This document shows positions 48,965 through 52,310 of a stretch of DNA of 64,000 nucleotides, in pieces; within the stretch, counting starts at the first letter, position 1, and the number at the start of each line of letters is the position of its first letter. Made by a program: the position numbers and the translations under genes. This DNA comes from an uncultured delta proteobacterium (GTDB taxonomy: Bacteria > Myxococcota_A > Polyangia > Fen-1088). The stretch lies in NCBI GenBank assembly GCA_963767925.1, contig CAVYGB010000001.1:295085-359084 (forward strand), in the 5' to 3' direction. A model generated the notes under the pieces. It worked only from the letters and a program-made list of their open reading frames with translations. It made no database searches and had not been told where the DNA came from.

Positions 48965-50488
48965 CTATACAGGCTTCGTGCCAGCTTTGACATCGTACCT
49001 TTGCAGCCAGTTCGTGAGGGTCTGGTAGCTGGGGAGCCCCAGCAGCCCGGCCGCGCGCGTCTTGTTCCCGTGGGCTTCCTCCAGGGCGCGAGACAGGTAG
49101 TGGCGGGCCACCCCGCTCATGAGGTCCTGAAGGTCCAGTCCCTCCCCCAGGCTCCGGCCCAGGATCTCCGGCGTGGCCGCTCGACCTACAGGCAACAGGG
49201 CCTCCCGGGCGTCCTCGGCCGAGATCGACTCCCCGTCGCTCCAGATGACAGCGCGCCGGAGGGTGTTGTGCAGCTCGCGCACGTTGCCCGGCCAGCCGTG
49301 AGCCAGCAGGACATTGCGCGCCCCTGCGGACAGCTTCTTCGGCCGCGCGCCCAGATCGCCTGCAGCCTCCTGGTTCAGTCGGTCGAGGATGTGGTCCACG
49401 AGCAGGCCCAGATCCCCGGTGCGTTCGCGCAGCGCGGGGATCTTCAGCACCGCCACCGCCAGCCGGTAGAACAGATCCTCGCGGAAGCGCCCGCCGGCGA
49501 TCTCCTCGGTCAGCGTGCGGTTGGTGGCGGCCAGGATGCGCACGTCCACCTTGTGTGAGCGGGTGGAGCCCAGTCGGACGATCTCCTTCTCCTGCAGCGC
49601 CCGCAGCAGCTTCACCTGGGCGGGCAGCGGTAGCTCTCCCAGTTCGTCCAGGAACAGCGTGCCCCCGTGGGCGTCCTCGAAGTACCCCTTGCGGGCCCGG
49701 TCGGCGCCGGTGAAGGCACCCCGGTCGTGACCGAACAGCTCCGACTCGATGAGCTCGGTCGGGATGGCGCCGCAGTTCACGGTGATGAAGGGCTGATCCT
49801 TGCGCAGGCTGGACTGGTGGATCGCTCGGGCCAGCATCTCCTTGCCGGTCCCTGACTCGCCCTCGATCAGCACCGGCACGTTGTGCACGGCCACCCGGCG
49901 GGCGCGCTGTACCAGCCGCTGCATCACCCGGCTGCGGTGCACGATGTCCGCGAACTCCGGCGTCGCGGGCGGCGCGGCGGCGCTGCCCTGACGCAGGCGT
50001 TCGTCCCGCTCACGCATCAGGTCGGGCAGGAAGTCCGCGGAGATCTCGAAGGGTACGGAGGCCACGCGAACGCCGTGCTCCTTCGATGACTCGATCAGGT
50101 CGGCAGGGTGGCGGGTTTTGCCGAGGATTATCCAGACTGCCGCCATGGCCGGCGTGCCGGGACTGAGGTGGAAGCAGAGCGACGTCTCCCGCGCTGGCCG
50201 TCCCCCGAGCGCTCGCGCGCAGCCGCGCAGAGCTGCTTCGTAGATCTCGCCGAAGTTGGTGGGGCCGGTCAGTCGTTCCGGGATGACCTCGAGGGGGACC
50301 TTGGTGCGTCCCTTCAGCCAAGAAAGGTAAGGCGTCACGAGCTCTTCCGCGTAGTCCGAGAGCAGGAAGATCTCGTCGAAGGGCAGGGCGCCGAGCGCCT
50401 GGGCTATCGGTCCGAGGCCCACGAGCGCGCCCTCCGTGGGCGCACGCAGGTCGGTCCGGCCAAGCCAGGCCAGGAGCACGCGGCGCAC
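48965..50488 (-). CDS. Sigma-54-dependent transcriptional activator with RtcR-like (CARF-type) N-terminal sensor domain
   Basis: Walker A 'GESGTGKE', the GAFTGA loop '[10 protein letters not shown]', 'FLDELGEL', 'WPGNVREL' and the C-terminal HTH. The N-terminal 165 aa carry '[30 protein letters not shown]', which by eye parallels the E. coli RtcR CARF region. Confidence 0.85.
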   Translation of the reverse strand: [507 protein letters not shown]

Positions 50489-50501
50489 GGATGAGAAGGG
50501 T

Positions 50502-50535
50502 ACAAGAAAACTTGTGAGGCCGCAAGACTACTTGT
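50502..50535. promoter_or_regulatory. Two related palindromes ACAAG-aaaa-CTTGT and CAAG-acta-CTTG(T), 20 bp centre-to-centre
   Basis: Read from the sequence in the 106-bp divergent intergenic region between the activator (ATG 50488) and the coiled-coil/nuclease-like gene. Confidence 0.4.
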
Positions 50536-50594
50536 CTCTCCCCGCAGGCGTCAGTTCGGGCAGGACGGCGAGCGTACGCCGCGCTTCTCGTGGC

Positions 50595-52310
50595 ATGGAA
50601 GGTGAAATGGGCACATCCATGACAAACCGAATACCGGGAGGCATCACCGTCTCCGTGGACTGCTCCGATGAGCTGGTCGCCGCCGAGGTCAGGGATCTCC
50701 GACCCGCCAGCATCACCCTGTTCGCCCACCTCGCCAGCGACCAGCGCGAGGAGCTGGCGCACGATGCCTGGACAATCGGCCTGCGCGCCCTCGGCAACGC
50801 TTACGCCGCAGGCCAGGAGGCGCGGCTGGCGGACGTGGGTGGCCAGCTCATCGCCGACATCGACCAGCAACTTCAGCGTCACATCCAGAGTCAGCAGCAG
50901 ACCATGACCTCGGTCATGGCGCGCTTCTTCGATCCCAGCGATGGCCAGGTCACCCAGCGGCTGTCGGCCTTCGTGGATGACCAGGGAGTCCTGGCGCGGC
51001 TGCTCGACCGGTTCCTTTCACCGCGGAATGGCGTCCTGGCCGAGGCGCTGGCGCGGCAGGTGGGGGAGAGCAGCCCTCTGTTCAAGAAGTTGAGCCTGAC
51101 CGACAGCGAGGGGCTGGTGAAGGTCCTCGAAGGGCAGCTCCGTTGCGTTCTTCACGAGGGCCGTGCGGAACTGGTGCGGGCTCTGGACCCGCTGGCGGAG
51201 GATGGCGCTGTCGGGCGCCTGCTCCGGAGTCTCCGGAACGAGATCGAAGAGGCGAACCACGACCGGTCGCGCCAGCTGGCCACCGCCTTGTCGGCTCTTG
51301 ACGCCAACGACGAGGAGTCGTTGCTAAGTCGCCTCATCCGGGAGACCAGCCAGGCCCGTCAGGAGGTTCTGAATGCCGTCAATCCCGAGTCACCGTTGTC
51401 CCCCATGGCCATCTTGAGGACCAGCCTCACCGCGCTGCTGAAGGAGCAGGGGGCTCTACAGCTGGACGCCATGCGCCAGCAGCGCGAGCGGCAGGAGCAG
51501 TTCGAGAAGGAGATCCGCGAAGCATTGGCCCGGATCGAGACCCGGCGGACTCAGGAGCGGAGGTCCACTTGGGGCGGCCTCGTCTTCGAGGATGCGGTGG
51601 TGCACTTCCTGGGCGACGTGACGAAAGGGGCTCCCTGCGTCTTCGAGGTCACCGGCTGCAGCGTGGGGGAGGTCGACCGCTGCAAGAAGGGCGACGCGGT
51701 CCTTCGCTTCACCGCCGAGAGCGCCTTCGCCGGCGCCGGCGTGGTCTTCGAGGCCAAGCGCGAGCACGGGTATACCGTGCAGAAGGCGCTCGACGAGCTG
51801 GACCTGGCTCGCAAGAACCGGAATGCCGTGGCCGGCGTGTTCGTCCTGGCGCGATCACACGCCGCCGAAGGGTTTCCCACCTTCGCCCGCTACGGTAGCA
51901 ACGTCCTCGTCACCTGGGACGACGACGACCCGGCGACCAACGCCTACCTGCGGGCTGCCACCCTGCTCGGCATGGGCCTTGTCACCCGGAATCGGAACAC
52001 GGGCGGCGCCAGTGACGTCACCGCCCTTCGCGACGTCGGAGGTCGGATCGAGGCGGAGGTGAACCGCCTGGAGAAGATGGACCGGTGCAACGCCGCCATT
52101 CGCCGGAACTCCGACGGCATCGGGGAGGAGACCCGCAAGGCGCGCAAGGCGCTCGACATCTTGCTGCGCAAGACCAAGGAAACCCTCCAGTCGCTGAACG
52201 TCGAGCTCCGGGACGAAGAAGCGGAGAGGAATTCACCGCTGACGCTGACCGAGTCGAGTCACCCAGCGCCAGCAGGTGTAGCTGATGACGACGAAGGCAA
52301 GGCGGCGTGA
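50595..52310 (+). CDS. Coiled-coil protein with C-terminal PD-(D/E)xK-like core (RmuC/DUF2130-like architecture); start uncertain (50595/50607/50619)
   Basis: The long helical N-part is followed by 'GGLVFEDAVVHFL...CKKGDAVLRF...GVVFEAKRE...AVAGVFVLAR' (nt 51564-51920), which has E/D...D...ExK spacing, and then a second coiled coil. Confidence 0.7.
   Translation: MEGEMGTSMTNRIPGGITVSVDCSDELVAAEVRDLRPASITLFAHLASDQREELAHDAWTIGLRALGNAYAAGQEARLADVGGQLIADIDQQLQRHIQSQQQTMTSVMARFFDPSDGQVTQRLSAFVDDQGVLARLLDRFLSPRNGVLAEALARQVGESSPLFKKLSLTDSEGLVKVLEGQLRCVLHEGRAELVRALDPLAEDGAVGRLLRSLRNEIEEANHDRSRQLATALSALDANDEESLLSRLIRETSQARQEVLNAVNPESPLSPMAILRTSLTALLKEQGALQLDAMRQQRERQEQFEKEIREALARIETRRTQERRSTWGGLVFEDAVVHFLGDVTKGAPCVFEVTGCSVGEVDRCKKGDAVLRFTAESAFAGAGVVFEAKREHGYTVQKALDELDLARKNRNAVAGVFVLARSHAAEGFPTFARYGSNVLVTWDDDDPATNAYLRAATLLGMGLVTRNRNTGGASDVTALRDVGGRIEAEVNRLEKMDRCNAAIRRNSDGIGEETRKARKALDILLRKTKETLQSLNVELRDEEAERNSPLTLTESSHPAPAGVADDDEGKAA

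Follow-up and report, generated by a model that had tools for sequence, protein, structure and literature searches.

What does an activator of the RtcR type control in a place where the RNA-repair genes rtcA and rtcB are missing? This question is raised by positions 48,965 to 52,310 of a stretch of 64,000 nucleotides (hereafter the window, which was also the scope of the analysis as regards the source genome) from contig CAVYGB010000001.1 of an uncultured delta proteobacterium. Read from right to left, the region 44.5-52.3 kb of the window contains a plus-strand open reading frame (ORF) ending at 52310, here called the partner, then a minus-strand ORF for a CARF-type, sigma-54-dependent activator, and then the remains of a Type I restriction-modification (R-M) operon. 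We consider it probable that this RtcR-like sensor-activator switches on both the partner and the Type I operon through two sigma-54 promoters. A tblastn search of the whole window with the E. coli RtcA and RtcB proteins gave noise only (best E-values 0.25 and 3.0), in line with an earlier reading of the stretch made from its letters without database searches (the sequence-only reading), and neither gene was seen in the related loci either.

The activator gene (48965-50488, minus strand) is intact, begins with GTG and encodes 507 aa, with the CARF domain located at approximately nt 50039-50488, the AAA+ domain at 49445-49945 and the helix-turn-helix (HTH) domain at 48995-49105. The complete bEBP core (bEBP, bacterial enhancer-binding protein) described in the sequence-only reading is indeed present, being visible both in the motifs GESGTGKE at residue 210, GAFTGA at 257 and LFLDE at 278 and in Pfam matches to Sigma54_activat (residues 182-348, E=5e-71), AAA_lid_14 and the Fis-type HTH_8 (462-498). 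Neither REC nor PAS nor GAF was found by Pfam, again as had been stated, and residues 1-165 have no Pfam match of their own.

Profile matches, homologues, a structural model and fold comparison together identify the N-domain as an RtcR-type CARF domain. The PADLOC profile PDLC01995 (RtcR_PspF2--CARF_AAA_HTH) covers the activator over its full length (E=1.8e-196, 652 bits), with residues 3-500 aligned on profile positions 2-480 of 481, and the PADLOC CARF4 profile, derived from a protein that is not an activator, matches residues 62-128 (E=7.4e-9). Among 43 homologues of the N-domain, 15 match Pfam RtcR (PF06956) and one matches Cas_Csm6_CARF. The AlphaFold2 (AF2) model of the N-domain (pLDDT 90, pTM 0.81) presents a Rossmann-like fold with six strands like that of solved CARF domains, and the best 49 Foldseek matches of this model in the PDB are all CARF proteins, with E-values down to 2.8e-6, including Csm6, Can2, Card1, Cad1, Cam1, Sis0811 and VC1899, with ring nucleases among them. 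The CARF identity, which had been proposed earlier by eye with RtcR strings that do match the real E. coli protein, is visible by fold comparison only where the PDB is concerned, a phmmer search of PDB sequences with the N-domain having returned no match.

The activator shares with E. coli and Salmonella RtcR the succession of CARF domain, sigma-54 AAA+ domain (GAFTGA) and HTH, as well as the motif H-[LI]-[ST]-x-G-T after strand 4 and the arrangement of a divergent, sigma-54-driven target gene. Its targets differ from those of RtcR, as they would be a nuclease-like protein and a Type I R-M system, without rtcA or rtcB. It was ruled out as an RtcR orthologue by the absence of both genes from the window, by a score of 342 bits on the NCBIfam RtcR equivalog (NF038308), well under the cutoff of 650 and confined to residues 71-490, and by an identity to E. 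coli RtcR of 32% over RtcR residues 79-472. The available parts of Makarova et al. 2014 (PMC4012209) state that the RtcR family mostly lacks a basic residue after strand 4, while for RtcR itself, ligands and the binding of RtcAB have been proposed in the available parts of PMC10159003 and PMC9650030.

The partner gene (50619..52310, plus strand) is likewise intact and encodes 563 aa. It had previously been placed at 50595-52310; the ORF stood and its start was corrected by 24 nt to 50619 (the MTN codon), because the ATG at 50595 lies inside a conserved -24/-12 box and all homologues begin at MTN. The protein starts with a beta-hairpin and carries long helical arms (approximately residues 40-312 and 438-525) on either side of a PD-(D/E)xK-like domain with a restriction-endonuclease fold and catalytic-type residues (residues ~318-437; nt 51570..51929). 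No transmembrane (TM) segment was found in it, the maximum Kyte-Doolittle average over 19 residues being 1.05. Its family, for which Pfam, NCBIfam and PADLOC have no model, is large: at E<=1e-3 it comprises 1098 clusters of 50% identity, and relatives that cover the full length reach down to approximately 25% identity. In the helical N-terminal part (approximately residues 100-260; window 50619-51560) a repeated motif, (L/F)-D/S-x-x-D/E-x-x-S/G-x-L-x-R-L-L, was observed in the copies LSAFVDDQGVLARLL, LDPLAEDGAVGRLL and LDANDEESLLSRLI, and the repeat is seen in the family consensus too.

The strings from which a nuclease had been predicted in the sequence-only reading ('FED...KKGD...FEAK') are present, and they correspond to the catalytic-type residues E324 (nt 51588), D359 (51693), E378 (51750) and K380 (51756). 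Across 67 diverse relatives, with identities down to 24%, G320, G358-D359, E378, K380 and R401 are invariant and F323-E324 near-invariant, and the residues fit the E...D...ExK pattern of enzymes with the restriction-endonuclease fold. In the AF2 model the region of the domain (~320-460) has pLDDT values of 74-89 except in one loop, and its predicted topology is a-b-b-b-a-b-b-b-a, flanked by long helices on both sides. The core elements (H323-334, E340-344, E360-364, E374-380, H387-400 and E405-411) form in this model an a-b-b-b-a-b core in which E, D and (D/E)xK are placed on helix 1, strand 2 and strand 3, respectively. Foldseek gave as best matches MspJI, AspBHI, EcoT38I, BamHI, McrC, SPARDA and Hjc, which consistently have the restriction fold.

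Assignment of the partner to a named family was less successful. Direct searches of the window partner against Pfam, NCBIfam, PADLOC, PHROGs and PDB sequences returned nothing usable, the family profile searched against PDB sequences gave coiled-coil noise only, and hhalign of that profile with a single E. coli Mrr sequence gave no match. Weak matches to Pfam Mrr_cat were obtained for 18 of the 67 relatives (E<=0.01) and to DUF2130 for four of them, the window partner not being among those matching Mrr_cat. The RmuC, DUF2130 and Mrr labels were not adopted, as the matches are weak and confined to a minority and the hhalign result is not significant; the RmuC/DUF2130 resemblance and the Shedu candidate of the sequence-only reading did not find support. 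A distant homologue on an archaeal plasmid, where the plasmid collection holds two distant archaeal relatives only, carries the annotation restriction endonuclease. On the basis of the model and the conserved residues, we describe the partner as a coiled-coil protein with a PD-(D/E)xK-like domain, without placing it in RmuC, DUF2130, Shedu or Shield.

The partner could still be a protein of recombination or repair resembling RmuC, or a factor that alleviates restriction, and would then be co-induced in order to limit or repair self-inflicted double-strand breaks. A coiled coil with a C-terminal PD-(D/E)xK domain is the layout of RmuC and DUF2130 proteins, DUF2130 is matched weakly by the four relatives mentioned, hhalign sets D...DAK of E. 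coli RmuC on D359...EAK of the partner family, and co-induction would take place with an enzyme able to cut unmethylated host DNA. We nevertheless regard this role as quite improbable: the hhalign probability is only 6%, the window partner has no Pfam RmuC or DUF2130 match, Mrr_cat matches are commoner than DUF2130 among the relatives, and the more distant relatives which stand alone are found beside TIR/ThsB and AbiEii genes, as well as integrase and relaxase genes. Moreover, ShdA, the one protein with an RmuC domain to be discussed in this connection, acts itself as an effector of defence (PMC11090510).

Scanning of one genome per species yielded 25 loci with the partner, and in 21 of the 22 with sufficient upstream DNA the partner is followed by the divergent CARF activator and then by hsd genes co-directional with the activator, which answers the synteny check suggested in the sequence-only reading. 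These loci belong to Myxococcota, Gemmatimonadota, Acidobacteriota (Thermoanaerobaculia), Planctomycetota and Lysobacterales, and the genes after the activator are hsdR-hsdM-hsdS, often with a DUF1016 gene added. In a single genome locus (L013, 7100-10000) no activator adjoins the close partner homologue (65% identical), which was observed to have a Shine-Dalgarno sequence and an HsdM-like gene nearby.

The restriction genes themselves are of more than one kind. Across the cassettes the majority Type I family has HsdR proteins 74-84% identical to that of locus L001, while clearly different families (29-34% identity to L001 HsdR) are found in the window and in L004, L011, L015 and L029, and the gene order is M-S-R in the window and in L033 but R-M-S elsewhere. 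Since the pair is joined to different Type I families and to both gene orders, the cargo of the cassette appears to be interchangeable. From the side of the activator, 80 metagenome loci were surveyed, whose activators are 52-73% identical to that of the window: Type I genes lie downstream in 45 of 55 loci, and the partner is present in 14 of 56, or in nine of the ten where the activator is at least 68% identical. These counts indicate that the link to restriction is general among activators of this family, whereas the partner was added in some lineages. In three metagenome loci (L046, L057 and L117) the divergent slot was seen to hold another partner subfamily than that of the window, closest to P0185 at 37-41% identity.

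The pairing of activator and partner is nevertheless old, as judged from IMG/VR contig L041, in which an activator 41% identical to ours is divergent from a partner relative of 26% identity and the downstream cargo is a Ser/Thr kinase-TPR-FHA (STK-TPR-FHA) gene. That contig (6148-16546) is classed as viral and also encodes, nearby on the opposite strand, a HEPN_Swt1-DUF499 protein. Another IMG/VR contig (L037, 7965-15877) presents a further cargo type for this activator family, with a CARF activator (54% identical) followed by genes for a DUF4357 protein and a 1240-aa protein with a reverse-transcriptase domain and by an HsdR-like gene.

In the window, the G+C content falls to 0.63-0.67 over 44.5-52.3 kb, compared with approximately 0.72 in the remainder, and no tRNA gene was found at the borders of the island. 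We think it likely that the cassette is a horizontally spread, mobile defence cassette with the Type I operon as an integral part. The sequence-only reading had presented the partner as standing in place of rtcBA in a pair recruited to a restriction island; this view did not hold, as conservation extends further for the Type I operon than for the partner, and the operon has a sigma-54 box of its own.

The non-coding DNA of 23 cassettes was compared with regard to regulation, the background of the promoter pattern in these loci being 1e-4 per nt. In front of the partner, a sigma-54 -24/-12 box termed P1 (TGGCATGGAAGGTGA, 50591..50605, plus strand) lies at a conserved position; it has the form TGGCAC-N5-xTG(C/A), ends 12-16 nt before the partner ATG and occurs at the equivalent position in all 23 cassettes, 17 of them with the strict pattern and six with GG-N10-GC variants. 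The sigma-54 control of the partner that had been suggested earlier is therefore supported by a conserved box. The -12 element of the window copy is GA, and the possibility that this is a decayed promoter was dropped, the same GTGA variant recurring in the intact cassettes L010, L012 and L028. Versions of P1 are also found in L033, with a partner of 42% identity, and in L041, the latter with a longer leader.

The predicted transcription start from P1 is at approximately 50617 in the window, 2 nt before the ATG, and 1-4 nt before it across the cassettes. Because P1 ends 12-16 nt before the ATG, the partner mRNA is predicted, with the usual sigma-54 spacing, to be nearly leaderless, and a Shine-Dalgarno sequence is absent before the partner genes of the cassettes. 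Partner homologues that lack the activator have the reverse: a Shine-Dalgarno sequence is present and the -24/-12 box is absent.

A second box, P2 (TGGCACGAAGCCTGT, 48983-48969, minus strand), precedes the hsd genes. In the window it falls within the final codons of the activator gene and is separated by 28 nt from the hsdM ATG, for which GGAGA provides the Shine-Dalgarno sequence. In all 23 cassettes, including those with unrelated Type I families, P2 is found at or just after the activator stop, usually as TGA-TGGCAC-N5-TTGA and with a short GGAG-containing leader between it and the hsd start, and a P2-like box is present in 41 of 55 metagenome loci. P1 and P2 are conserved amid non-coding DNA that is otherwise divergent, and the offset of P2 is different in L004 and in the window, which favours function over inherited sequence. 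The -12 element of the hsd promoter was seen to be almost always TTGA across 23 loci and CTGT in the window, a difference that may affect basal transcription independent of the activator.

These boxes bear on a simpler account, according to which the activator controls the hsd operon only, as in the literature, and the partner is an unrelated defence gene hitch-hiking in the same island. The restriction link is far more general than the partner link, as the metagenome counts given above demonstrate, and defence genes do cluster for reasons besides co-regulation. This account is nevertheless very improbable in our opinion, as every activator-linked copy of the partner has a sigma-54 box at a constant distance before its ATG and no unlinked copy has one, and the divergent pairing recurs at deep divergence and with cargo other than R-M.

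The reading in which one activator serves both promoters is aided by the candidate enhancers. Between the divergent genes lie two dyads, candidates for upstream activating sequences, the first being ACAAG-aaaa-CTTGT (50502..50515), 14 nt upstream of the activator start codon and conserved in position and sequence, and the second GCAAG-acta-CTTGT (50522..50535), at 20 bp centre-to-centre from the first. Their consensus across the cassettes is (A/G)CAAG-N4-CTT(G/A)(T/C), in two copies 20 bp apart and 12-34 nt upstream of the activator start codon. No further copy was found in the activator gene or near P2, which leaves the two dyads as the only enhancer candidates; a conserved AACAAGAC in the 3' part of the activator gene was rejected as an enhancer, being explained by the G-N-K-T codons of the HTH. 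With -24/-12 boxes at the targets and an upstream enhancer candidate, the arrangement is that of a sigma-54 activator, as far as sequence evidence goes.

Two variations in this region were observed. In L033 (5240-5500), where the partner is 42% identical, the dyads read GTAAC-N4-GTTAC and the -24 box TGGAAC, and the enhancer sequence appears to have co-varied with the activator HTH. A motif richer in A/T, (C/T)AAGTnnTTGAA, resembling an IHF site, is found between the dyads and P1 in L002, L005, L019, L020 and L021, and the shorter spacer between dyads and P1 in the window has no clear copy of it.

Domains, synteny, both promoter boxes and dyads were all computed, and from them a mechanism may be proposed for the layout of partner gene, P1, two enhancer dyads, CARF-bEBP gene, P2 and Type I R-M operon. 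The activator would be made at a low level from a promoter of its own, which was not located (a simple sigma-70 scan of 48800-52500 found nothing), and would probably repress itself, because the dyads are 12-34 nt from its start codon. No terminator was predicted in a scan of 48800-52500, including the space between activator and hsdM, so that read-through into hsd is possible; it would probably provide basal methylation and restriction, being the simplest source of the former. As long as its ligand, a signal from infection or nucleic-acid damage, is not bound, the CARF domain would keep the AAA+ ring from acting. This autoinhibition step is drawn by analogy from RtcR, and Genschik et al. are said to have found in 1998 that deletion of the RtcR N-terminus makes the protein constitutive. 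From its place on the two dyads, the activated hexamer would next bring about the opening of sigma-54 holoenzyme complexes at P1, approximately 80-100 bp away, and also at P2, approximately 1.5 kb away, by looping. The outcome would be a burst of Type I enzyme together with the partner, which, if it has nuclease activity, may act in defence as a second DNA-targeting effector made from an almost leaderless mRNA.

In the window itself this mechanism could operate only in part. The activator stop (48965) and the hsdM ATG (48940) are separated by 24 bp, and the co-directional hsd genes are dead, both as the sequence-only reading had found. The hsdM pseudogene (47404..48940, minus strand) has a frameshift near 48420-48435, with HsdM_N and N6_Mtase on two overlapping ORFs in different frames. 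The hsdS remnant (46766..47407, minus strand) consists of the first target-recognition half followed by out-of-frame sequence, without a Methylase_S match and without a tblastn match to L001 HsdS. The hsdR remnant (44548..46659, minus strand) has lost its nuclease domain and the beginning of its motor domain and aligns only to residues 450-1117 of L001 HsdR; HSDR_N is absent, Pfam ResIII begins at profile position 100 of 164, and the N-terminal ~450 residues are missing. All three genes of the window system are therefore degraded, while related loci have intact copies, examples of intact cassettes being L001 (Pyxidicoccus xibeiensis) and L006 (Corallococcus sp. CA053C), and the R-M arm is dead in this genome, where the sensor-to-partner arm alone could still work.

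Several points weigh against a single switch for both targets. The survival of activator and partner here, while the R-M genes decayed, means that the link between them is not obligatory. In P1 and P2 of the window and in most P2 copies, GA or GT takes the place of the canonical GC in the -12 element, and this makes promoter strength and dependence on the activator uncertain. P2 has no enhancer copy nearby, and therefore activation would have to span approximately 1.5 kb. Induction-dependent R-M would also pose a self-methylation problem. As regards the partner, its AF2 model is poor overall (mean pLDDT 64.5), no Foldseek match reached E<1e-3 (best 5.4e-3) and none of the named nuclease families was matched significantly. 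Of the earlier nuclease claim, the PD-(D/E)xK-like domain with its conserved catalytic-type residues is supported.

Some of the same evidence can be accommodated if the partner is a regulatory or sensing partner of the activator instead of an effector, with the coiled coil binding to the CARF or AAA+ domain and feeding back as PspA does on PspF or RtcA/RtcB on RtcR, and the nuclease-like domain recognising DNA or RNA ends. The divergent sigma-54 layout is common to pspF/pspA and rtcR/rtcBA, and the partner is largely helical. According to the available part of PMC9650030, RtcAB bind to the RtcR CARF domain and are required for activation. The pair has furthermore been kept at 26%/41% identity with different cargo (STK-TPR-FHA), as well as here after the loss of R-M. 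The likeness to PspF-pspA is one of layout: in both cases the gene of a sigma-54 activator diverges from a gene that is driven by sigma-54 and whose product is a coiled-coil protein, helical for the most part, and the enhancer is in the intergenic region common to the two. However, PspF has no sensor domain where the window activator has CARF, PspA has no nuclease-like domain, and the Pfam search revealed no similarity in sequence of the partner to PspA. A purely regulatory partner remains, in our view, unlikely: catalysis is suggested by the fact that E...D...ExK is invariant or nearly so throughout the family, many relatives are encoded on their own in defence islands or mobile elements with no activator at all, and 42 of the 56 loci of the activator family have no partner, so these activators do not need it to work.

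A reading in which the partner is an effector can also be taken further, and we put this forward only tentatively, as doubtful. The activator-partner pair might be an old, self-contained, transcription-gated immune core, in which a sigma-54 promoter fired by CARF gives a leaderless nuclease mRNA and to which interchangeable first-line cargo has been added repeatedly behind a second sigma-54 promoter. The cargo added in this way would comprise at least three Type I R-M families and one STK-TPR-FHA gene. Even if infection impairs initiation dependent on Shine-Dalgarno sequences, or mRNA leaders, the leaderless mRNA could still be translated. The non-canonical -12 GA of P2 could supply the basal expression that self-methylation requires, and the partner might exert feedback on the CARF domain in the manner of RtcAB and RtcR.

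Part of the proposed dual switch has precedents. In the available portion of Makarova et al. 2014 (PMC4012209) a 'PspF-like' CARF activator family, unlinked to Rtc, is described as 'often associated with restriction-modification systems', with the prediction that it activates the genes downstream of it through sigma-54. The full-length PDLC01995 match (RtcR_PspF2) identifies the window activator as a member of this family, and like the family it heads a Type I hsd operon read in the same direction and has the predicted role of a sigma-54 activator of restriction genes. The differences are that R-M is degraded in the window, that the two of three parts of Supplementary File 4 which are available display activator-hsdR-M-S loci with no divergent partner of ~560 aa, and that the available portion of the paper names no promoter or enhancer sequence, both of which are predicted for the window cassette.

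Bell et al. 2024 (PMC11090510) described defence 'superoperons' headed by RtcR homologues and including Type I R-M, Druantia III and CoCoNuTs. As in the window, an RtcR-like CARF activator stands at the 5' end of co-directional restriction genes, and the idea of staged defence under transcriptional control is the same. In contrast with these superoperons, the window has no CoCoNuT or HEPN component, and its extra component is divergent instead of downstream and belongs to a different, unnamed family. The same paper presents ShdA (Shield), which has a TM helix, a coiled coil and an RmuC-like nuclease domain and is often encoded inside Pseudomonas Type I R-M loci. ShdA resembles the partner in the fusion of a coiled coil to a PD-(D/E)xK-type nuclease domain and in being encoded with Type I R-M genes and near RtcR homologues. 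The partner differs from it in having no TM segment, in the nuclease-like domain being flanked by helices on both sides and in the gene being divergent and predicted to be driven by sigma-54; there was also no PADLOC match for the partner at E<=0.05, in a release that may not include ShdA models.

The link between sensor and restriction has therefore already been published (2014, 2024) and is embodied in a PADLOC model, which lowers the novelty of the present findings. Apart from strain genotypes, a literature search for experiments on the control of hsd genes by sigma-54 brought up nothing. For the partner family, the twin promoters and the leaderless design, no description was found in the literature searched, outside which falls a 2020 CARF classification paper that may mention the partner. 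The partner family, the layout of two promoters and one enhancer, and the leaderless partner mRNA appear to be new.

Of the surrounding genes in the window, a HepT-like RNase (38055-38480, minus strand; Pfam E=2.7e-17) and an MntA-type nucleotidyltransferase (38477-38923, minus strand), which overlap by 4 nt, form a typical toxin-antitoxin pair. Cross-talk between HepT and the cassette had been raised in the sequence-only reading; HepT/MntA are ~10 kb away and nothing linking them to the cassette was found. Further left is an ORF for an SNF2-family helicase of 1099 aa (34653-37952, minus strand; SNF2-rel_dom E=1.4e-61) with a long N-terminal region without a domain match, and to the right of the cassette are ORFs for a calpain-family (Peptidase_C2) cysteine protease (53175-54251, minus strand) and a DUF6178 protein (54760-55974, minus strand).

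The best-known role of CARF domains is to switch CRISPR type III effectors allosterically. In conclusion, in the cassette described here a CARF domain would instead be wired to transcription, with a classical restriction system as one target and a second, nuclease-like protein as the other, and with two promoters, one enhancer and one sensor domain predicted, this wiring is concrete enough to be tested. The consistently leaderless mRNA predicted for the partner would be an unusual trait for a sigma-54 promoter. If the proposal is true, the cassette would exemplify a Type I restriction system that is inducible and controlled by sigma-54, it would provide a function for a large unnamed protein family (~1100 clusters at 50% identity), and it would offer a compact system for learning what RtcR-type CARF domains sense outside RNA repair.

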